Assembly: GCA_963703065.1 (NCBI GenBank)
Contig: OY969785.1
Span: forward strand, 2,014,116-2,078,115
DNA length: 64,000 nt
Direction of reading: 5' to 3'
DNA from: an uncultured Solirubrobacterales bacterium
GTDB taxonomy: Bacteria; Actinomycetota; Thermoleophilia; Solirubrobacterales; Solirubrobacteraceae
Part shown: piece by piece, positions 14,818-60,757 of the stretch
Position numbering within the stretch: the first letter of the stretch is position 1
Layout of the letters: every line of letters starts with the position of its first letter
Made by a program: the position numbers and the translations under genes
The notes under the pieces: model-generated
What the model was told of the DNA's origin: nothing
What the model saw: only the letters and a program-made list of their open reading frames with translations
Database searches by the model: none

Positions 14818-14907
14818 CGACCGGTCCGGCCCCGCACCTCACCCTCCGGCGGGTCTCCGCCTGATCCGCCAAGCATGCGGGTCGCCGAGGTGGGTAAGGT
14901 CCGATCG

Positions 14908-16416
14908 ATGTCCGACAACGATCGAACTCTCGGCCGGCGGGGCCCGCTCGCCGGGCGTTATCCCGCGGTGGCGATGATGGTGATCTTCGCCCTCGTCCCG
15001 TACCTGGCGCTCTCCGCGGCGCTCGCGCCGATCACCCCGATCATCGCCCGCCAGCTGCACATGAGCCTCCAGACGATGAGCCTCGCCTCCGGGATGGGCA
15101 ACGCGGCGTACGCGATCGGGACGGTCCTCGCCGTGCAGTTCGCCCAGCACCTGCCGCAGCGGCGGATGATGGTCGTCTACGCGGGACTGCTCCTGCTCGG
15201 CTCGGTGCTGTCGGCCGCCGCCGATAGCCCGGGCGTGTTCGTGGCCGGCCACGTGCTCCAGGGGCTCTGCACCAGCCTGCTGCTCATCGCCGCCGTGCCG
15301 CCGCTGGCCCTCGGCTTCGGCCAGGCCCGGCTCCGGGAGACCGGGATGATCATGAACATCTGCATCTTCGGGGCGGTGGCGCTGGGGCCGACCGTGGGCG
15401 GGCTCCAGGCCGGAGCGCACGGCTGGCGGCCGCTGTTCTGGATCGTGGCCGGCATCTCCGCCACCGCACTCCTGCTGTCGCTGCTGACCTTCGAGGACGC
15501 GCCGCCGGCGGATCGGACCGCTCCGTGGGCTCCCACGGCCCTGGGGCTGGCCGGCGCCGGGTCGGTGGCCGCCTTCTTCGGCGCGTCGCAGCTGCTGACC
15601 CACCGGTTCCTCGACCCGGTGGCGCTCGGTCCCCTCCTCGCCGGGCTGGTGCTGATCGTCCTGCTCATCGTCGGCCAGTACCGCAGCCCGCGGCCGCTGC
15701 TGACGATCCGCAGCATGCTGTCGAGCACGATCCCGGTGGCGGGGATCGTCGTCGCCCTGTTCGCCGCCGCGGCATCGGTGTCGGCCACCGCGCTGACCGC
15801 CGGCCTGCTCGACGCCCGCTACAGCCCGCTCCACGTCGGCCTGCTCTACCTGCCGGAGCTCGGCGGCGCGGTGCTCACCGCCGTGGTGCTCGGCGCGGTG
15901 CTCAGCCGGCGAGCGATCCACTACCTGCCCCTGGTCGGGATGGGGTTCCTGGCCGCCGGGATCGCGGTGTTCCGCATCGAGCTGCCGCCCACCCAGGCGC
16001 TGACCCTGGTCGGCGCCGGGCTGACCGGGATCGGCCTCGGCGCCACCGTGGCGCCGGCGCTGTTCGTCGCCGGCTTCTCGCTGCCGTCCGCCAATCTCCA
16101 GCGCGTGTTCGCCATCGTCGAGCTGCTCCGCGCGGTGGCCGCGTTCATGATCGCGCCCCTGTTCGCCCACTTCGCCGCCACCGTCGGCGGTGGGCTGCGC
16201 GCGGGCACCGGGATCGCGTTGTGGATCGGGCTCGGCCTGGCGATTGGCGGCGCGGTGATCGCCGTGCTCCTCTACGTCCTCGGCGGGGCACGACCCCAGA
16301 CGCCGGCGCTCGACGAGTTCATCGCCGGCGAGCGGGCGGCGTGGTACTCGCCGCCGCTCCTGGCCCGCGTGCGCACCCGCTGGCTGGCCGGGGAGCTGGC
16401 CGACGAGGTGGCGTAG
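14908..16416 (+). CDS. MFS transporter
   Basis: About 14 TM segments; TAAGGT -10 lies 7 nt before the ATG. Confidence 0.85.
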   Translation: MSDNDRTLGRRGPLAGRYPAVAMMVIFALVPYLALSAALAPITPIIARQLHMSLQTMSLASGMGNAAYAIGTVLAVQFAQHLPQRRMMVVYAGLLLLGSVLSAAADSPGVFVAGHVLQGLCTSLLLIAAVPPLALGFGQARLRETGMIMNICIFGAVALGPTVGGLQAGAHGWRPLFWIVAGISATALLLSLLTFEDAPPADRTAPWAPTALGLAGAGSVAAFFGASQLLTHRFLDPVALGPLLAGLVLIVLLIVGQYRSPRPLLTIRSMLSSTIPVAGIVVALFAAAASVSATALTAGLLDARYSPLHVGLLYLPELGGAVLTAVVLGAVLSRRAIHYLPLVGMGFLAAGIAVFRIELPPTQALTLVGAGLTGIGLGATVAPALFVAGFSLPSANLQRVFAIVELLRAVAAFMIAPLFAHFAATVGGGLRAGTGIALWIGLGLAIGGAVIAVLLYVLGGARPQTPALDEFIAGERAAWYSPPLLARVRTRWLAGELADEVA

Positions 16417-16425
16417 GCGATCCCG

Positions 16426-18000
16426 GTGGATCGCAAGGGGCTCGCGCTCACCGCTGCGATCCTGGCCTCGACGATCGCCGCGGTCGACACGTCGGCGACG
16501 AACGTCGCGCTGCCCGCCATCGCTCGCCAGCTTGGGGGCGGGTTCGCCGCCCAGCAGTGGATCTCGAACGCCTACCTGCTGACGCTGGGTACGCTGATCC
16601 TGCTCGCCGGGTCACTGACCGACCGGCTCGGCGAACGACGGGTGTTCGTCCTCGGCGTGTCCGGATTCGGGGTCGGCTCGGCGCTCTGCGCCGCCGCCCC
16701 GACGGTCGGGATCCTGATCGCCGCCCGTGCCCTTCAGGGCGTCGCGGGGGCGATGCTCACCCCGTCGGCGCTGGCGATCATCGTCGCCGTGTTCGGACCC
16801 GAGGAGCGTGGCGCGGCGGTCGGCCGCTGGACCGCCTGGAGCGGCGTCGGGATCCTCGCCGGGCCGCTGATCGGCGGCGCGCTCGTCGACCAGGCCTCCT
16901 GGCGGTGGATCTTCCTCATCAACCTGCCGCTCGTGAGCGCGGCGCTGTGGCTGGCCCGCACTGCCGTGCCCGGCCGTTCGACGCGCGCGGTGTCCGGCCG
17001 GATCGATGGGCTCGGTGCGCTGCTCGCCGCCGTCGGGCTGGCCGGCGTGTCGTTCGGGCTCATCGAGCGCCCGGTGCTGGGCGGCGGGATGGTCGTGTGG
17101 ACGGCGCTCGCGGTGGGCGCCACAGTGTTCGCCGCCTTCGTCGCCTACGAGCGCCGGGCGCCGGCGCCGATGCTCCCGCTCGAGCTGTTCGCCCGGCGGA
17201 ACTTCGCGGTGGCCAATGCGCAGACGCTCGCCATGTACGGCGGGATCGGTCTGCTCGGCTTCTTCGTCACGATCTACCTCCAGCAGGTCGCCGGCTACAG
17301 CGCGCTCAAGTCCGGGGTCACCGGCCTGGTCCCCACCTGTGTCATGTTCCTGCTCTCCGCGCGGATCGGCGCGCTGGCCGATCGGTACGGGCCGCGCCCG
17401 TTCCTCATCGGCGGGCCGTGCCTCGTGTCGGCCGGCTTCCTCCTCATGCTCCGCTACGGCACGTCAGTGTCGCTGCTCGGCGACGTCGTCCCCGCCCTGC
17501 TCGTGCTCTCGCTCGGCCTCGCCTGTACCGTCTCGCCGCTCACCGCGACCGTGCTGGCCGACGCGGACGAGCACGATGCCGGGATCGCCTCGGCGGTGAA
17601 CAACGCCATCGCGCGCACGGCCAGCCTGATCGCGGTGGCCGCGGTCGGAGCGGTCGTCAGCGCACACTACGCGGGCGCGCTCGACGCCCGGCTGGCCGGC
17701 CGCCTCCCCGCGTCGAGCGTCCCGGCGATCCGCGCTGCCAAGCGGGCGACGTTCGGGCGGATCGATCCCCATGCCGTCCCTCCGGCCGACCGTCCGCTCG
17801 CCGCCCGCGCGAGCGCTGCCGCCGCTCGCGACGCGTTCCACCTCACGGTCGAGATCGGCGGCGGACTGCTCCTCGTCGCCGCGGCCGGGGGGCTGGCCCT
17901 GCGCGGGCGGCGGCGGCCGGACGTGGCGGCGGCCGAGTGCGCGGCCGGTCAGACGACGGGGCAGCCTCGGGCGCTCATGGGCGCGTCGGTGCGGAGCTGA
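16426..18000 (+). CDS. MFS transporter, DHA2 (EmrB/QacA) family
   Basis: NVALPAI, GSLTDRLGERRVF, WRWIFLINLP. Confidence 0.92.
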   Translation: MDRKGLALTAAILASTIAAVDTSATNVALPAIARQLGGGFAAQQWISNAYLLTLGTLILLAGSLTDRLGERRVFVLGVSGFGVGSALCAAAPTVGILIAARALQGVAGAMLTPSALAIIVAVFGPEERGAAVGRWTAWSGVGILAGPLIGGALVDQASWRWIFLINLPLVSAALWLARTAVPGRSTRAVSGRIDGLGALLAAVGLAGVSFGLIERPVLGGGMVVWTALAVGATVFAAFVAYERRAPAPMLPLELFARRNFAVANAQTLAMYGGIGLLGFFVTIYLQQVAGYSALKSGVTGLVPTCVMFLLSARIGALADRYGPRPFLIGGPCLVSAGFLLMLRYGTSVSLLGDVVPALLVLSLGLACTVSPLTATVLADADEHDAGIASAVNNAIARTASLIAVAAVGAVVSAHYAGALDARLAGRLPASSVPAIRAAKRATFGRIDPHAVPPADRPLAARASAAAARDAFHLTVEIGGGLLLVAAAGGLALRGRRRPDVAAAECAAGQTTGQPRALMGASVRS

Positions 18001-18061
18001 GCCGGGCGCGCTGCCCGCTGAGGCCCCGGATCCGGCGCGTCGAACCTCTACGCTCTGCCCG

Positions 18062-18292
18062 GTGAGCACCGTCATGTACGTCAAGCCCGGGTGCCCGTAC
18101 TGCCAGACCGCGCGCGAGCACCTGGCGGCAGAGGGCATCGAGGTCGAGGAGCGCGATGCCACCCTCGAGGCGCGCTGGCGCGAGGAGCTGATGGGCTACA
18201 CGAATCGGCGGGGCGTCGTGCCCACCATCGTGCCCGACGACGGGCCGGTTCAGGTCGGCTTTCCGCCCGGTCGCGGCTGACGCGTCCACTGA
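18062..18292 (+). CDS. Glutaredoxin-like (seleno)protein; TGA at 18278-18280 probably selenocysteine (conventional ORF ends at 18280)
   Basis: CPYC active site and VPTI cis-Pro motif; ...GFPPGRG-TGA-CGC-GTC-CAC-TGA with a SECIS-like hairpin immediately after the first TGA. Confidence 0.8.
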
Positions 18293-18323
18293 CGCGGTCG
18301 GTCGACTGCGCAGCGGCGACGCG
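18281..18323 (+). promoter_or_regulatory. Candidate bacterial SECIS element
   Basis: Upper stem CGCGGTC/GACTGCG with GGUC loop starting 20 nt after the UGA; lower stem CGCGTC/GACGCG. Confidence 0.7.
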
Positions 18324-18379
18324 TGGCTCACGGCCCCTGCGCCGTGGCGCGGACGACTGCCGCCACCGCCACGTGCGGC

Positions 18380-20269
18380 TCAGCCGACCTGCGTACGCGC
18401 CTCGGCCGCCGCGGCCACCGCCCGTTCCACGGCGTTGACATCCCGGACCGCGCCCGTGTCGGCCGAGGTGGCCATGGCGGCGTAGGCCCGGAGCGCCGGT
18501 GAGACGGCGCGGTCCCGGAGCGCCGGCACGTAGCCGCCGCCCGACTCCAGCCGTTCCCGGCGCTCGGCGAGCTCCTCCTCGCTGACCTCGAGCGCCAGTC
18601 GGCGGGCGGGGATGTCGATCGTGATCGTGTCCCCGTTCTCGATCAGCGCGATCGTCCCGCCGGCTGCCGCCTCGGGTGAGACGTGGCCGATCGACAGTCC
18701 GGAGGTCCCGCCCGAGAAGCGGCCGTCGGTGATCAGGGCGCAGGCCTGACCGAGCCCTCGCCCCTTCAGATAGGAGGTGGGGTAGAGCATCTCCTGCATG
18801 CCGGGGCCGCCCCGCGGCCCCTCGTAGCGGATCACCACCACGTCACCCGGACGCACGCCGTCGCCGAGGATCAGCTCGACGGCTGCCTCCTGGGACTCGA
18901 TGACCACTGCGGGGCCGGAGAAGCGCAGGATCGACTCGTCGACGCCGGCCGTCTTGACCACGCAGCCGCGCACCGCGATGTTGCCGTACAGGATGGCCAG
19001 GCCGCCGTCGGCCGAGTACGCGTGCGCCACGTCCCGGATGCAGCCCTCGGCGGCGTCGGTGTCCAGGGACTCCCAGCGCTCGGACTGCGAGAACGCCTCC
19101 GCCGAACGCCGGCACCCCGGCGCGGCGTGGAACAGCTCCCTGGCCACGTCCGAAGTCCTCCCGGAGCGGACATCCCACGCATCGAGCCACTCGTCCATGC
19201 CGCGCGCGTGGACCGTGTGCACCGACTCATCGAGCAGGCGGCCGCGACGAAGCTCCCCCAGGATGGCCGGGATCCCGCCCGCCCGGTGGACGTCCTCCAT
19301 GAGGTAGGACCCGTTCGGCGCCACCTTGCAGATGCACGGGACGCGGCGTGAGAGCTCGTCGATGTCCCGCATGGTGAAATCGAGCTCGGCTTCGTGGGCG
19401 GCAGCCAGGATGTGGAGGATGGTGTTCGTCGAGCCGCCCATCGCTATGTCCAGCGTCATCGCGTTCTCGAACGCGCCGCGGGTGGCGACCGCCCGCGGGA
19501 GGACCGAGCCATCGTCCTCGCCGTAGAACCGGCGGGCCAGGTCCATCACGGTTCGACCCGCCGATTCGTAGAGCTCGCGCCGGGCGGTGTGCGTGGCGAG
19601 CGTCGAGCCGTTGCCCGGGAGTGCCAGGCCGAGGGCCTCGGTCAGGCAGTTCATCGAGTTGGCGGTGAACATGCCGCTGCACGAGCCGCAGGTCGGGCAG
19701 GCGGCCTCCTCGATGATCGCGATGTCCTCGTCGCTCACCTCGGTGGCGACGGCGTCGGCGATCGCCGAGATGAGGTTGACCCGCTTGCGCACCGTGCCGT
19801 CGAGGAGCACCGCGGTGCCGCCCTCCATCGGCCCACCGGACACGAACACCGTCGGGATGTTCAGCCGCAGCGCGGCCATCAGCATCCCGGGGGTGATCTT
19901 GTCGCAGTTGGAGATGCAGATCAGGGCGTCGGCGCAGTGCGCGTTCACCATGTACTCGACGCTGTCGGCGATCAGGTCGCGGCTCGGCAGCGAGTAGAGC
20001 ATCCCGCCGTGACCCATCGCGATTCCGTCGTCGACCGCGATCGTGTTGAACTCCCGCGGGATGCCCCCGGCCTCGTGCACCGCCTCGGCCACGATCTCGC
20101 CGACCGGCTTGAGGTGGGTGTGGCCGGGCACGAACTGCGTGTAGGAGTTGGCGACGGCGACGATCGGCTTTCCGAAGTCCTCGCGCGCTACGCCGGCGGC
20201 CCGGAGCAGGGCTCGCGCGCCGGCCATGTTCCGGCCGTGCGTGACGGTGCGGGAACGCAGCGCGGGCAT
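18380..20269 (-). CDS. ilvD: Dihydroxy-acid dehydratase
   Basis: [48 protein letters not shown]. Confidence 0.98.
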
Positions 20270-20287: not shown

Positions 20288-21694
20288 CTACGCAGCGGGT
20301 GCGGCGAGGGGAGCGGCCAGGCTCCGGCGAGCGCTGAGCCGGACGTAGCCGGCCAGGCCGGCGAGCAGTGACGCTCCAGCCAGCGCCCACCAGCCGGATT
20401 GGTAGGCGTGCAGCGTCGCCGCCGGGCTGTGCGGGTGACCGAGGATGGCGATCAGGGCGGCGACCCCGATCGCCAAGCCGATCTGGCGGAACATGTTGAC
20501 CACCGCCGAGCCGGTGGCCAGCGCGTGGGGCGGGAGCGAGCCCGCGCCGGCCGCCATCAGGGTCGGCAGCGTCAGCCCGACGCCGATCCCGGTGACGATC
20601 ATCCCGCCGAGCGCATCGCCGACGTAGTCCGGCGTCAGCCCGACGGCCAGCGCCCACCAGGCGATGCCGGCGGCGAACAGCGTTGCGCCGGCCGCGCTCA
20701 CCGCGCCGGCGCCGAAGCGGGCGACGAGCCGCCCGGTGATCCCGAACCCGAACAGCGGCACCATCAGCGGCCCGGGCGCGATCGACAGTCCGGTGTCCAG
20801 GGCCGACCAGTGCCAGACGTCCTGGGTGAACAGCACCCGGGACAGGAGCATGCCGCCGAAGGCGACGGAGAACAGCAGCATCGCGGCGGAGGCGCCGGTG
20901 AACGACCGCAGGCGGAGCAGCGCCGGGTCGACGAGCGGTGCACGGTGCCAGGCGCAGTGGGCGGCGAACAGCGACAGGAGGATCGCCGCTCCGCCGAGAG
21001 CGCCCAGCGTGCGCCCCGCGCTCCACCCCCAGCTCCCGCCCTGCACCAGCCCGAGCGTCAGCAGTCCGACGCCGCCGGTGATGAGTGCGGCGCCGAGCGG
21101 ATCGGGCGCCGGCACCGGATGGCCGGCCACCGCCGGCAGCCGGCGCCAGCCCACGGTCAGAGCGACGAGTCCGACCGGCAGGTTGACCAGGAACACCCAC
21201 CGCCAGCTGGCGGCCACGAGCAGTCCGCCCACCACCGGGCCGAGCGCCGCGGCCAGGCCGCCGACCGCTGTCCAGGCGCGCACCGCACCGGCCCGGCGCT
21301 CGGGTGCGGTGGTGGCGAGGACGAGGCTGAGCGAGGTGGGGGTGAGGATTGCCGCGCCGGCTGCCTGCACGATCCGGAAGGCGATGAGCGTGCCGAGGCT
21401 GCCCGCCGTCCCGCACGCCGCCGACGCCGCGGTGAACAGGGCCACGCCGAGCAGGAACGCTCGGTCGCGCCGGAACCGCTCGGCGATCCGGCCGAACAGG
21501 ACGAGGCAGGCGGCGTACACGATCGCGTAGGCGTTCAGCACCCAGGACAGCTCGGCGAGCCCGTCCGCTCGCAGGTGGAAGTCGCGTCCGATCTGCGGCA
21601 GCGCGACGTTGACGATGAACAGGTCGAGGCTGGCCAGCACGACGCCGGCGCAGACGATCACCAGAACGAGGCGGTGCTGGCTAAGGCGTGGCAT
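20288..21694 (-). CDS. MFS transporter, DHA2 family
   Basis: LDLFIVNVALP, WRWVFLVNLP; TACGGT -10 lies 7 nt before ATG 21694. Confidence 0.92.
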   Translation of the reverse strand: MPRLSQHRLVLVIVCAGVVLASLDLFIVNVALPQIGRDFHLRADGLAELSWVLNAYAIVYAACLVLFGRIAERFRRDRAFLLGVALFTAASAACGTAGSLGTLIAFRIVQAAGAAILTPTSLSLVLATTAPERRAGAVRAWTAVGGLAAALGPVVGGLLVAASWRWVFLVNLPVGLVALTVGWRRLPAVAGHPVPAPDPLGAALITGGVGLLTLGLVQGGSWGWSAGRTLGALGGAAILLSLFAAHCAWHRAPLVDPALLRLRSFTGASAAMLLFSVAFGGMLLSRVLFTQDVWHWSALDTGLSIAPGPLMVPLFGFGITGRLVARFGAGAVSAAGATLFAAGIAWWALAVGLTPDYVGDALGGMIVTGIGVGLTLPTLMAAGAGSLPPHALATGSAVVNMFRQIGLAIGVAALIAILGHPHSPAATLHAYQSGWWALAGASLLAGLAGYVRLSARRSLAAPLAAPAA

Positions 21695-21713
21695 AGTCAG
21701 CACCGTACCACAC

Positions 21714-21738: not shown

Positions 21739-22239
21739 ATGGAAGCCCCCGATCACACCATCCGTCTCACGGGATCCCTCGAGCCGCGCTCCGGCTGGAC
21801 TGCGGAACGCTGCCCGATCGCGGCCGCGCTCGACGTCGTCTCCACCCGCTCGGCGTTCCTGTTGCTGCGCGAGGCCTTCTACGGCACCGACCGGTTCGAC
21901 GACTTCGCCGCGCGGGTCGGGATCAGCCAGCCGGCCACGGCGAGCGCCCTCCGCCGCCTGGTGGAGCACGGGCTCCTGGTCCGGGCGGACTACCGCGAGC
22001 CCGGCCAGCGCACTCGCCAGGGCTACCGCCTCACTGCCAAGGGAGCCGAGCTGCTGCCGGCGCTCACCGGGCTGATGGAGTGGGGGAGCCGCTGGCTGGA
22101 CGGGCGCGGCGGCCCGGTCGAGCTTCGGCATCGCGAGTGCGGGGAGCCCGTCGAGCTCGGCTTCCGCTGCGCGGCCGGACACGAGGTCGCGTCAGACGCG
22201 CTCGATCTGGCGCCGCGCCCCCGGCCGATCAGCGCGTGA
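21739..22239 (+). CDS. HxlR-family winged-helix regulator
   Basis: CPIAAALDVV...LLLREAFYG...RFDDF...YRLTAKG; HRECG. Confidence 0.92.
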   Translation: MEAPDHTIRLTGSLEPRSGWTAERCPIAAALDVVSTRSAFLLLREAFYGTDRFDDFAARVGISQPATASALRRLVEHGLLVRADYREPGQRTRQGYRLTAKGAELLPALTGLMEWGSRWLDGRGGPVELRHRECGEPVELGFRCAAGHEVASDALDLAPRPRPISA

Positions 22240-23738: not shown

Positions 23739-25766
23739 TCAGCTCGCGGCGACGAGCGCCAGGACCTGGTCCGCGTGGCGCTCCAGGAACGATGGGCCGA
23801 TCCCGCGGATATCGGCCAGCGCGTCCACCGAGGCGGGACGGCCCGCCGCGATCGCCTCGAGCGTGCGGTTGTGGGCGACGGTGTACGCCGGCTTGCCCGC
23901 CGCAGCGTCGGCCCGCCAGGCCCGCAGCGCCTCGAGTAGCGCCCGGTCAGCGGGGTCCAGTTCGACCGCATCGGGAGCGGCCGCACCGGCACCCGACCGG
24001 CCGCGGGACCGCGGGACGCTCAGGGTCGCCGGATCGGGCAGGCCGATCGTGTTCGGGTCGCAGATGTCACAGCAGCGGCCGAGCGGCGCCCCTGGCCGTG
24101 GATCGCCGAAGTGGTCGAGCAGCGCGCGGCGCCGACAACCACCATCCGGTCCGGCGAACGCCTCGATCGCGCGGTAGGCGCGCCACGCCCGGTCGCGCGC
24201 CGCGCGGCAGATCTCCCGCACCGCCTGCGAATCGCCGTTGCGTCGCAACGTGACGCGCAGTCGACCGCCGCGCGCCGGCTCCAGCGCGCAGAACCCGGCC
24301 CGCTCGGCGATGCCGAGGCAGATCCGGTCGCGATCATCGGGCAGTGCGTCGAGCACCAGCTCGCCACCGCGCGCCTCGTCGCCCAGGCGGCGCACGAACC
24401 CGGCGACCGCGTCCGGCTCGATCGTCCCCTGGCGGATGAACGTGATCAGCCGGCCCAGGTCGGCACGCGCGGCGAGCAGCCGGGCCCGAGCCGGGCGTCC
24501 GTCCCGCCCCGCTCGACCGGCCTCCTGATAGAGGGCCTCGATGCTCTTCGGGATCGACCAGTGCAGGACGGTGCGGACATCCGCCTTGTCGACACCCATG
24601 CCGAACGCGTTCGTCGCCACCACCACGTCGGCGTCCCCGGCCATGAACCGATGCTGCGCGGCCGCGCGCTCGTCGGCCGGCAGGCCTGCGTGATAGCCGA
24701 CCGCGGTCAGCCCCGCGCCCCGCAGCAGCTCCGTCACCTCCTCCACCTCGCGGCGCGTGCCGCAGTAGACGATTCCCGGCCGGTCCTCGGCGGCGGCGAG
24801 CGCCCGCACGGCGAGCATCCCCTTGCGCGCACGAGACCCGGCGCCGTCGACTCCGATGACGTCGAAACTGAGGTTCGGGCGGTCGAACCCGGCTCGCAGG
24901 ACGTACGGGTCGCGCAGGCCCAGCCGGGCGGCGATCTCCTCGCCCACCGCCTCGGTGGCGGTAGCGGTGCAGGCCATCACCGCCGGCCGGCCGAGCCGGA
25001 CGATCACGTCGCGCAGCCGCAGGTAGTCCGGGCGGAAGTCGTGACCCCACTCCGAGACGCAGTGCGCCTCGTCGACCGCGAACAGGTCGACTCGCCGCGC
25101 GGCGAGCGCCTCCAGGAACGTCGCTGAGGCGAACCGCTCCGGCGAGCAGAGCACCAGCCGGGCCCGCCCCTCCCGCACCTCGTCGAGCGCCGCCGCCGCC
25201 ATCCCGGGCTCCATCCCCGACGCGATCATCGCCGCCGGATGCCCACCGGCCCGCAGGCGACGATATTGGTCGGCCATCAACGCGATGAGCGGCGAGACGA
25301 CGACGGTCAGGGTGTCCTCGGCGATGCCCGGCAGCTGGTAGCAGAGGCTCTTGCCCCCGCCGGTCGGCATCACGACCAGGCTGTCGCGGCCGGCCAGCGC
25401 GGCGGCCACGGCCTCGCGCTGTCCGGGCCGAAACTCGGCCAGCCCGAAGAACCGGAGCAGCGCGTCGGGATCCCGCGGTCCTCGGTAGCGGCAGACGAAC
25501 GCGCCCTCGGGTTCGATCCGGTCCAGGCCGCGGAGCGCCCGCCGGGCCGCGGCGTCGTCCTCCAGCAGCGATGCCTGACGCGGCGCCGGCGCCTGCGCGG
25601 CGGCCAGGGCCGTGGCGAGCGGGACGGCGGCCACGCGCTCGGCGTCGCTCAGCACACGCCACAGGTCGCGGAGCGCCTGGAGCTCCCCCGCCACCGCCGC
25701 GTCCTCGCCGCCGGCCCGCAGCCGGTCGAGCAGGGCCGTGGCCCGGGGGGCGAAGCCGTCGGTCAT
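23739..25766 (-). CDS. recQ: RecQ-family ATP-dependent DNA helicase with HRDC domain
   Basis: PTGGGKSLCYQLP, DEAHC, WGHDFRPDY, QEAGRAGRDG, CCDIC, C-terminal HRDC. Confidence 0.95.
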   Translation of the reverse strand: MTDGFAPRATALLDRLRAGGEDAAVAGELQALRDLWRVLSDAERVAAVPLATALAAAQAPAPRQASLLEDDAAARRALRGLDRIEPEGAFVCRYRGPRDPDALLRFFGLAEFRPGQREAVAAALAGRDSLVVMPTGGGKSLCYQLPGIAEDTLTVVVSPLIALMADQYRRLRAGGHPAAMIASGMEPGMAAAALDEVREGRARLVLCSPERFASATFLEALAARRVDLFAVDEAHCVSEWGHDFRPDYLRLRDVIVRLGRPAVMACTATATEAVGEEIAARLGLRDPYVLRAGFDRPNLSFDVIGVDGAGSRARKGMLAVRALAAAEDRPGIVYCGTRREVEEVTELLRGAGLTAVGYHAGLPADERAAAQHRFMAGDADVVVATNAFGMGVDKADVRTVLHWSIPKSIEALYQEAGRAGRDGRPARARLLAARADLGRLITFIRQGTIEPDAVAGFVRRLGDEARGGELVLDALPDDRDRICLGIAERAGFCALEPARGGRLRVTLRRNGDSQAVREICRAARDRAWRAYRAIEAFAGPDGGCRRRALLDHFGDPRPGAPLGRCCDICDPNTIGLPDPATLSVPRSRGRSGAGAAAPDAVELDPADRALLEALRAWRADAAAGKPAYTVAHNRTLEAIAAGRPASVDALADIRGIGPSFLERHADQVLALVAAS

Positions 25767-59849: not shown

Positions 59850-60757
59850 GTGCCGTCGACCAGCAGCTCGCCTACGAGGCGCGGGCCAAGCCGCGCCAGG
59901 CGGTGATCGCCGCCGGCGCGGCGGTGCTACTCGTCGCAGCGGCCGCCATCCAGCTCGCCGGGCCGCACACGAAGGTCAACGAGCTGACGCTCGACCTGAT
60001 CACCGCCCACCGGCGGTTCCCGCTCGACCTGATCGGTGCGATCGTCAACGGCTTCGGCCTCACCGCCCTCGCCGTCACCCTGGTGTTCCTGTTCCGGATG
60101 TCTCGCGCGCGCAAGCCGAGGACCTGCGCGACTTCGTCCAGTGGCTGGCGCTCGGCGGGGCCATCGTCGCCGGCGCTGACCGGAATCGTCTACGCGGTCC
60201 TGATCGCCAGCAAGGCCTCGACGTTCGTCAGCCACGGCGCTCAGACCTACCAGCAGGCCAACCAGCTGACCACCGGCGGGGGTCTGCTGGCGCTGCCGCT
60301 GTTCGGCCAGGCGTCGGCGCTGGTGCTGGCGGTCGGCTTCGTGCTCATCTCGCTGAACGCCATGCGGGTCGGCCTGCTCACCCGCTTCATGGGTTACCTC
60401 GGCATCTTCACCGGGGTCCTCGTCCTGTTCCCGATCGGCTCGCCGGTCCCGGTCGTCCAGGCGTTCTGGCTGCTCGCGCTCGCCTACCTGTTGACGAACC
60501 GCTGGCCCTCCGGCGTGCCCTCGAGCTGGAGGAGCGGCCAAGCCGAGCCGTGGCCGTCCTCGGCGGAGCTGCGCGAGCAGCGTTCGCGCACCGCCGGCCG
60601 GCACGGCGCCGACAAGCCGCCGAAGTCCACCAAGCCGGCTCAGCCGGCCGGCGCGGTGAAGGTCACCCGCCAGGACGTGGAGGAGACCGTCGCCGGCGGC
60701 CAGGCCGCCCGCACCCGCTCCGGCACGCCCAAGCGCAAGCGCAAGCGCCGGCACTAG
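59846..60757 (+). CDS. Hypothetical multi-TM membrane protein with basic C-terminal tail
   Basis: About 6 TM segments, KRKRKRRH tail; locally frameshifted at 60118-60176. Confidence 0.75.
   Translation: MSAVDQQLAYEARAKPRQAVIAAGAAVLLVAAAAIQLAGPHTKVNELTLDLITAHRRFPLDLIGAIVNGFGLTALAVTLVFLFRMSRARKPRTCATSSSGWRSAGPSSPALTGIVYAVLIASKASTFVSHGAQTYQQANQLTTGGGLLALPLFGQASALVLAVGFVLISLNAMRVGLLTRFMGYLGIFTGVLVLFPIGSPVPVVQAFWLLALAYLLTNRWPSGVPSSWRSGQAEPWPSSAELREQRSRTAGRHGADKPPKSTKPAQPAGAVKVTRQDVEETVAGGQAARTRSGTPKRKRKRRH

Follow-up and report, generated by a model that had tools for sequence, protein, structure and literature searches.

The reading frame and its two TGA codons

The question raised by this locus is whether the TGA codon at which a small glutaredoxin-like reading frame appears to end is a stop or a codon for selenocysteine (Sec). 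The gene lies in a stretch of 64,000 nt (hereafter the window), which belongs to a single-contig genome of 3.25 Mb (85% complete, 72% GC) of an uncultured Solirubrobacterales bacterium. As the initial annotation had described, and as we confirmed in the sequence, the frame that opens with GTG at 18062 (ATG in most homologs at the aligned start) passes the CPYC motif, reaches ...GFPPGRG and TGA at 18278-18280, and runs on through CGC, GTC and CAC to a second TGA at 18290-18292. Termination at the first TGA gives a product of 72 aa, and read-through a product of 76 aa (…GRG-U-RVH). The sequence comparisons presented below make it very likely that the first TGA is read as Sec and that three residues are added after it. 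The positions of the features are given in Table 1. A scan for sigma-70 promoters and intrinsic terminators gave 0 sites, and an Rfam scan of 17500-19000 gave only 7 chance matches, none of them near the gathering scores.

Table 1. Features of the locus, with positions in the window
Feature	Position	Strand	Remarks
Uxx-star family glutaredoxin-like selenoprotein gene (predicted)	18062..18292	+	Starts with GTG; read-through product of 76 aa, ending at TGA 18290-18292
CPYC active-site motif, Cys11-Pro-Tyr-Cys14	18092..18103	+	Invariant in 22/22 alignment rows
V52-V53-P54, equivalent of the cis-Pro loop (glutaredoxin TVP motif)	18215..18223	+	Predicted partner strand of the Sec tail
UGA codon, putatively read as selenocysteine U73	18278..18280	+	TGA in 78/78 intact loci; Cys in 10 aligned homologs
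Arg, Val and His codons that follow Sec	18281..18289	+	Val in 78/79, three synonymous codons
True stop codon	18290..18292	+	TGA 58, TAG 18, TAA 2 in 78 homologs
SECIS apical hairpin (candidate)	18293..18310	+	7-bp stem, GGUC loop 18300-18303; wholly 3' of the stop codon
3' arm of the lower stem of the initial annotation	18318..18323	+	Present here, not conserved
Convergent ilvD (dihydroxy-acid dehydratase)	18380..20269	-	Neighbour only, outside the system

Conservation of the TGA codon and of the tail

A contig scan confirmed 162 relatives, of which the best 80 were analysed. The coding end of 78 of these 80 Solirubrobacterales loci reads G-x-G-TGA-x-x-x-stop; of the remaining two, one carries a frameshift and the other is truncated at the end of its contig. 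All 78 intact loci have TGA at the Sec position, never TAA or TAG, and the stop three codons further on varies (Table 1). The second residue after the putative Sec is Val in 78 of 79 sequences, the window included, and it is encoded by GTG in 38, GTC in 34 and GTT in 6 of them; this use of three synonymous codons indicates a coding-type conservation of the tail. In the methods of bioRxiv 2022.07.06.499078, a universal TGA in ten or more family members is taken as the mark of a bacterial selenoprotein, and the TGA found here is universal in 78 of 78 loci.

The same tail was present in 12 of the 14 loci of the genus sample (own locus and two from G025 included), and the other two loci are damaged copies; these loci overlap with the 80 above and the counts are not additive. 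The damaged gene copies are L020/L085, a second copy in G035, and L017 of G005; one is frameshifted near the tail, and the other has a large internal deletion but has kept a tail-like and a hairpin sequence. An order-wide search with the NF041212 profile gave 28 loci, 19 of them with a tail of the U-X-V-X type (own locus, G228 and G283 included), the rest being 3 ordinary YruB-like redoxins and 6 loci unmatched by the tail pattern. In a class-wide search, all 27 matches from other families end U-X-X-stop with a hairpin behind the stop. Set against these 27 two-residue tails, the 78 three-residue tails show that Solirubrobacterales members have one tail residue more than would follow from the name Uxx-star. 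A one-base assembly error as the source of the longer tail was rejected, since 78 of 78 homologs share the tail length. In two class-level relatives, L165 (G345) and L169 (G330), the tail contains Cys in addition to Sec and reads GFGGS-U-G-C-stop.

No Cys form at the Sec position was found among the close Solirubrobacterales homologs. Among 150 listed representatives of 1088 profile-search matches, 10 distant homologs have Cys in the aligned Sec column, and 5 of the 7 that were scanned pass the NF041212 cut-off. Six of the 10 have CPxS/T instead of CxxC, so that only the first Cys of the active site remains, together with the Cys of the tail, which marks these two residues as the conserved pair. 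V53 and P54 are invariant in the aligned Cys homologs too. The homologs therefore have TGA or, at a distance, Cys at this position, and the product ending G-R-G-U-R-V-H that the initial annotation had proposed is supported by the invariant TGA, the coding-type tail and the distant Cys homologs.

It had also been claimed that gene callers truncate the protein, and the databases bear this out: 119 of 120 listed proteins and all 86 new ones, that is 205 of 206 distinct proteins among those listed, stop with the Gly that precedes the UGA. Only P0041 differs, with Trp at the Sec position and an unrelated tail. In a further branch (P0219-P0252) the database sequences likewise stop at Gly, with the endings GWEGRG or GWGDPxRG, and one member, P0227, has Trp at the Sec position; the branch probably consists of more truncated Uxx-star selenoproteins.

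The hairpin behind the stop codon

The minimum free energy (MFE) fold of 18278-18330 has an upper stem (18293-18299/18304-18310) with the loop 18300-18303, and a lower stem (18281-18286/18318-18323). The 53-nt segment that starts with the first TGA reaches -27.7 kcal/mol in this fold, with a z of -1.85 and 9 of 200 shuffles as good; since the genome has 72% GC and 9 of 200 shuffles are as stable, the fold alone says little, and the significance of the hairpin comes from its conservation. The initial annotation had placed the start of the GGUC apical loop 20 nt after the UGA, and it does start there, at the 20th base behind a spacer of 19 nt. The SECIS of E. coli fdhF has a GGUC loop as well; the two elements are alike in having a hairpin with a loop that starts with GG, and differ in location, the present one standing after the stop codon.

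The apical hairpin is kept in all 79 sequences, those of the 78 loci and that of the window; the closing C-G is present in 79 and CGGTCG in 70 of them, and at least 6 of the 7 pairs are formed in 73 of 79. The loop lies 17-21 nt after the UGA in 77 of 79 and 18 nt after it in 50. Across the 33 sequences of equal offset, 95.9% of the cells are paired and 5 of 6 pairs have changes on both sides, whereas slid controls pair 28-57%; 0 of 500 shuffles reach the covariation score, in a shuffle test that is inflated by kinship. The lower stem CGCGTC/GACGCG was rejected as a part of the SECIS, being specific to this locus: all 6 pairs are possible in only 6 of 79 sequences, even with the partner 6-mer chosen freely. 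Of the 43-nt hairpin proposed as SECIS, the fold is thus present here and the apical C-GGUC-G is conserved, but the lower stem is not. By this comparison, conservation of the putative SECIS is confined to the short apical C-GGUC-G hairpin that follows the true stop and does not extend over the full 43 nt.

The model of bacterial SECIS elements given in PMC13188914 has a loop of 3-9 nt with G first, a stem of 4-16 bp, a spacer of 16-37 nt and an MFE of at most -7.5. In a hand check against these four constraints, we found a 4-nt loop starting with GG, a 7-bp stem, a 19-nt spacer and -10.2 kcal/mol for the 20-nt hairpin, each of them within the limits of the model. The true stop at 18290 is only 7 nt from the loop, outside the spacing of 16-37 nt. 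Recoding of this second TGA as well was rejected, because 20 of 78 homologs have TAG or TAA there and the distance to the loop is only 7 nt. The usual bacterial SECIS sits in coding sequence, whereas here the hairpin starts on the base after the true stop and is located in the 3' UTR; it falls past the stop codon because the Sec is C-terminal. SaoC is described as a parallel case of a SECIS after the stop (bioRxiv 10.1101/2022.07.06.499078), and a search of further literature for 3'-untranslated bacterial SECIS elements gave nothing relevant.

Family placement

On NCBIfam NF041212 (Uxx-star family glutaredoxin-like (seleno)protein), for which the cut-off is 66 bits, the product with read-through scored 70.1 bits and matched model positions 2-70 of 70, and the truncated product scored 65.3 bits, below the cut-off; three homologs gave 68.3-71.6 bits. 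The Pfam PF00462 match was 44 bits, and the score on TIGR02181 (classical glutaredoxin) was 40.4 bits against a cut-off of 90. The UXX-star families 1, 2 and 3 (NF041114, NF041211 and NF047338) and the HUGP/GUXX-star fusion (NF045501) are homologous (E 1e-9 to 1e-12), but the scores of 38.3, 36.5, 47.0 and 47.8 bits are far below the respective cut-offs of 72, 100, 97 and 325. UXX-star family 1 has two Sec (UxxT site), whereas the present protein has CPYC and one Sec; it is also not fused, unlike HUGP/GUXX-star. For family 2, PMC13188914 lists one Sec and a GxGU motif, which is also the motif of the present tail.

The closest homologs are in Solirubrobacterales, Solirubrobacteraceae and Thermoleophilaceae records, and two close ones, P0035 and P0179, already carry the NCBI name Uxx-star although both sequences end at Gly. 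The protein is, by its profile scores, a member of the already catalogued UXX-star selenoprotein family, the Solirubrobacterales branch of which is uncatalogued. It had been called a hidden selenoprotein, which holds for the mis-truncated gene but not for the family, since the latter is known and NCBI applies its name to Solirubrobacteraceae and Thermoleophilaceae homologs. With the NF041212 members it shares a length of about 70-76 aa, the glutaredoxin fold and Sec or Cys near the C-terminus; it differs in the three residues after Sec (U-X-V-X-stop) where the name implies two, and many members have a Pro-Pro-Gly insertion before GRG. Exactly two residues would be the literal reading of the name. 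A two-residue tail is unlikely to be a strict criterion for the family, as judged from Cys members over the cut-off, which also differ in tail length.

CPYC, the V-P of the cis-Pro loop and the fold are shared with classical dithiol glutaredoxins (E. coli Grx3, Clostridium cGrx1 7c10, NrdH-redoxins), to which the read-through model gave Foldseek TM values of about 0.7-0.75. The classical proteins have the loop TVP, a GG motif and a C-terminal helix, whereas the present one has VVP, GF followed by PPGRG, and a Sec tail with no helix. The known Sec glutaredoxins treated in PMC13188914 have Sec in a UxxC motif and not in the tail. A literature search on Sec in Solirubrobacterales or Thermoleophilia, on this branch or on the tail as glutathione found nothing relevant, which is weak evidence since the coverage was incomplete. 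The text on BSepDB (PMC13326102) mentions neither UXX nor Grx.

Selenocysteine machinery and a second candidate selenoprotein

The source genome has a tRNA-Sec at 1,483,700 (67.6 bits) and a selD (378.6 bits), each over its cut-off. The selD gene, at C1:2,406,390-2,407,319 (minus strand), encodes the Cys form (AGCGCK) and is far from selAB and tRNA-Sec. Both selA and selB are present at 1623375-1626076 in several frames, none over cut-off, with selA in 5 pieces and selB in at least 3. When compared with intact orthologs in two relatives, unrelated flanking genes (an ABC ATPase and permease, a methylmalonyl-CoA mutase-like gene, a sugar transferase and the gene next to it) show the same frame switches, from which we infer local assembly indels for selA and selB. 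The frameshifts are probably an assembly error, and the Sec machinery of this strain is likely to be intact. The check for Sec machinery thus came out clearly for tRNA-Sec and selD and with frameshifts in the assembly for selA and selB. In the region C1:1,618,000-1,629,300, selA-selB are flanked by an amino-acid ABC transporter, by a moaD-moaE fusion-like gene and by a nucleotide-sugar epimerase/decarboxylase-like gene, and G033 shows this gene order too; most genes in the region are frameshifted, which points to poor polishing.

A selA over cut-off was found in 32 of 36 genus members (G025 and G030 included). Among related and hence not independent genomes, it was found in 23 of 25 carriers of the glutaredoxin-like gene versus 39 of 73 non-carriers; the carrier set comprises 9 of 9 (G025 included) plus 14 of 16, with G005, which has a gene remnant, left out. 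The two carriers without a selA match, G185 and G249, are both fragmented. The association is consistent rather than strong, given the kinship of the genomes and how common selA is among the genus members.

The alpha subunit of formate dehydrogenase, FdhG (C1:155,701-158,919, minus strand), has an in-frame TGA at 158,346 (…QARI-U-HSST…) with a C-GGUCU-G hairpin 18 nt past it, the same C-GGUC start as in the glutaredoxin hairpin. Of 2306 in-frame TGAs after coding-like sequence in the genome, 13 are followed by a similar hairpin and 4 of these have 6 of 6 pairs; two of the four are the TGA of the present gene and the Sec codon of FdhG. These two may be the only selenoproteins with this SECIS type in the genome.

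Predicted structure of the tail and thiols of the hosts

An AlphaFold model of the read-through product (Sec as Cys, 22-row alignment) has a pLDDT of 90.4, the best of five models (the others 70-84), a glutaredoxin core and no helix after residue 46; its best Foldseek matches are dithiol glutaredoxins, ordinary redoxins. Strand or bridge marks appear at 52-53, 67, 71 and 73-74. In the control model of the truncated form, the marks at 52-53, 67 and 71 are gone and residues 70-72 fall below pLDDT 50. The DSSP strings of the two models suggest a pairing of U73-R74 with V52-V53, in the strand that precedes the cis-Pro.

The cysteine of glutathione forms a mixed disulfide with the first CxxC cysteine of glutaredoxins. 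The TVP motif is described as binding the cysteine moiety of glutathione (PMC6120076). From the predicted pairing at the TVP site and this chemistry, the tail is proposed to be a tethered stand-in for glutathione that would resolve Cys11. Such a role would agree with the monothiol Cys homologs and with the outcome of the searches for gshB, mshC and bshC given next.

In profile searches of these incomplete genomes, gshB was found neither in the source genome nor in any of 24 carriers. No mshC over cut-off was detected in the 24 carriers or in the source genome, and the mshC matches below the cut-off are probably cysteinyl-tRNA synthetase. A search of the source genome for bshC was also negative. 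The best thioredoxin reductase match in the source genome is partial (281 bits versus a cut-off of 343).

Gene neighbourhood

Clustering of 372 ORFs around the 80 loci gave no neighbour recurring beyond 7 loci, no metal-resistance operon and no operon-based clue to function; ilvD is not a recurring neighbour. In the window, three MFS transporter genes and a winged-helix regulator (14875-18000, plus strand; 20288-21703, minus; 21739-22239, plus) flank the gene and ilvD; two of the transporters are DHA2/EmrB-like, under cut-off, and the flanking genes are not conserved beside the homologs. A RecQ-family helicase over cut-off (TIGR00614) is at 23739-25766 (minus strand). ARAGORN called a 96-nt tRNA-Ser(GCT) at about 60584-60679 of the window (minus strand), although another is present at 991,278 of the genome; the call may be false in such high-GC DNA.

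Proposed mechanism and alternative explanations

As a whole, we think it reasonably probable that the UGA is read as Sec by means of the hairpin behind the stop and that the tail folds into the glutathione groove as a tethered selenol partner. The mechanism would start from what the sequence comparison gives, namely an invariant UGA, three codons under coding constraint and a true stop that varies between TGA, TAG and TAA. According to established bacterial Sec biology, SelB with Sec-tRNA would then bind the GGUC loop 18-19 nt downstream and decode the UGA; since the ORF ends 12 nt after the UGA, the hairpin lies in the 3' UTR, free of codon constraint. That recoding under control of the hairpin holds in the lineage is nearly certain in our judgement. 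The tail is then predicted to take the place of the last helix of ordinary glutaredoxins, with U73-R74 paired to V52-V53. Cys11 would attack a substrate disulfide or an oxidised thiol, the nearby selenolate would resolve it to a Cys11-Sec73 selenenylsulfide, and Cys14 and/or a thioredoxin reductase system would re-reduce this bond, with no need of free glutathione. For the docking of the tail and the Cys11-Sec73 relay, we would put the chance slightly below even. The initial annotation had seen in the tail a second redox centre; a Sec tail is supported, but it is more likely a partner of Cys11 than an independent centre. A functional analogy, without homology, is offered by the Gly-Cys-Sec-Gly tail of mammalian thioredoxin reductase, where the C-terminal Sec tail is described as exchanging with the N-terminal dithiol (PMC10298544); in that flavoenzyme the tail brings a Cys-Sec pair with it, whereas here a lone Sec is carried on a 76-aa redoxin. 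A wider and more doubtful proposal is that Uxx-star proteins carry their own glutathione, with the Gly-Sec-Xaa tail lying in the groove for glutathione and imitating it as a tethered selenol.

If the TGA at 18278 were an ordinary stop, the hairpin would be a terminator or stability element for the gene or for the convergent ilvD, and in that case TGA as a common stop in high-GC genomes (58 of the 78 true stops here), a z of only -1.85 for the fold and the ending of 119 of 120 listed database proteins at this Gly would all be expected. We consider it extremely improbable, as TGA is invariant in 78 of 78 loci, unlike the in-frame stop that comes next, the Val two codons on is kept with synonymous codons, Cys homologs exist, and the loop sequence is conserved as in a protein-binding loop. 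A U-tract is lacking, and the hairpin is conserved whatever the neighbouring gene, ilvD not being a recurring one, so the terminator reading was not upheld. As far as sequences can tell, the pairing of Cys with TGA largely refutes an ordinary stop.

A decaying Sec system, with selA and selB truly broken and only the 72-aa product made in this strain, would account for the split genes, selA in 5 and selB in at least 3 pieces, which differ in frame and all score under cut-off. This is very unlikely, given that unrelated neighbours switch frame likewise against intact orthologs in syntenic order, that tRNA-Sec, selD and the UGA and hairpin of FdhG are intact, and that selA passes its cut-off in 32 of 36 members of the genus. 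The function could also be a different one: Cys11, Cys14 and Sec73 may form a site for soft metals or metalloids (Hg, Cu, As), serving in binding, chaperoning or reduction instead of a disulfide relay. The 2026 review PMC13188914 considers that the UXX-star Sec may be a metal ligand or contact unknown substrates, and three thiol or selenol groups predicted near one groove would suit such a site. We rate it as unlikely, though less so than the two preceding alternatives: no neighbour, and hence no metal-resistance operon, recurs in the 80 loci (largest unrelated clusters at most 7), 6 of 10 Cys homologs are without the second CxxC cysteine, and the best fold matches are ordinary redoxins.

Implications

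Recoding of the UGA as Sec would mean, for annotation, that database entries for the Solirubrobacterales members of this known selenoprotein family are consistently too short (205 of 206 listed proteins) and should be corrected. The hairpin is adjacent to the stop and free of codons, and its natural variants, of which there are dozens, form a clean set from which to learn what actinobacterial SelB recognizes. A Sec tail beside Cys11 in the glutathione site is a specific and testable prediction on a protein of 76 residues. If the tethered-mimic proposal were true, it would give soil Solirubrobacterales, in which synthesis genes for glutathione, mycothiol and bacillithiol were not detected, a self-contained glutaredoxin cycle, and it would explain the function of the whole uncharacterised Uxx-star family.
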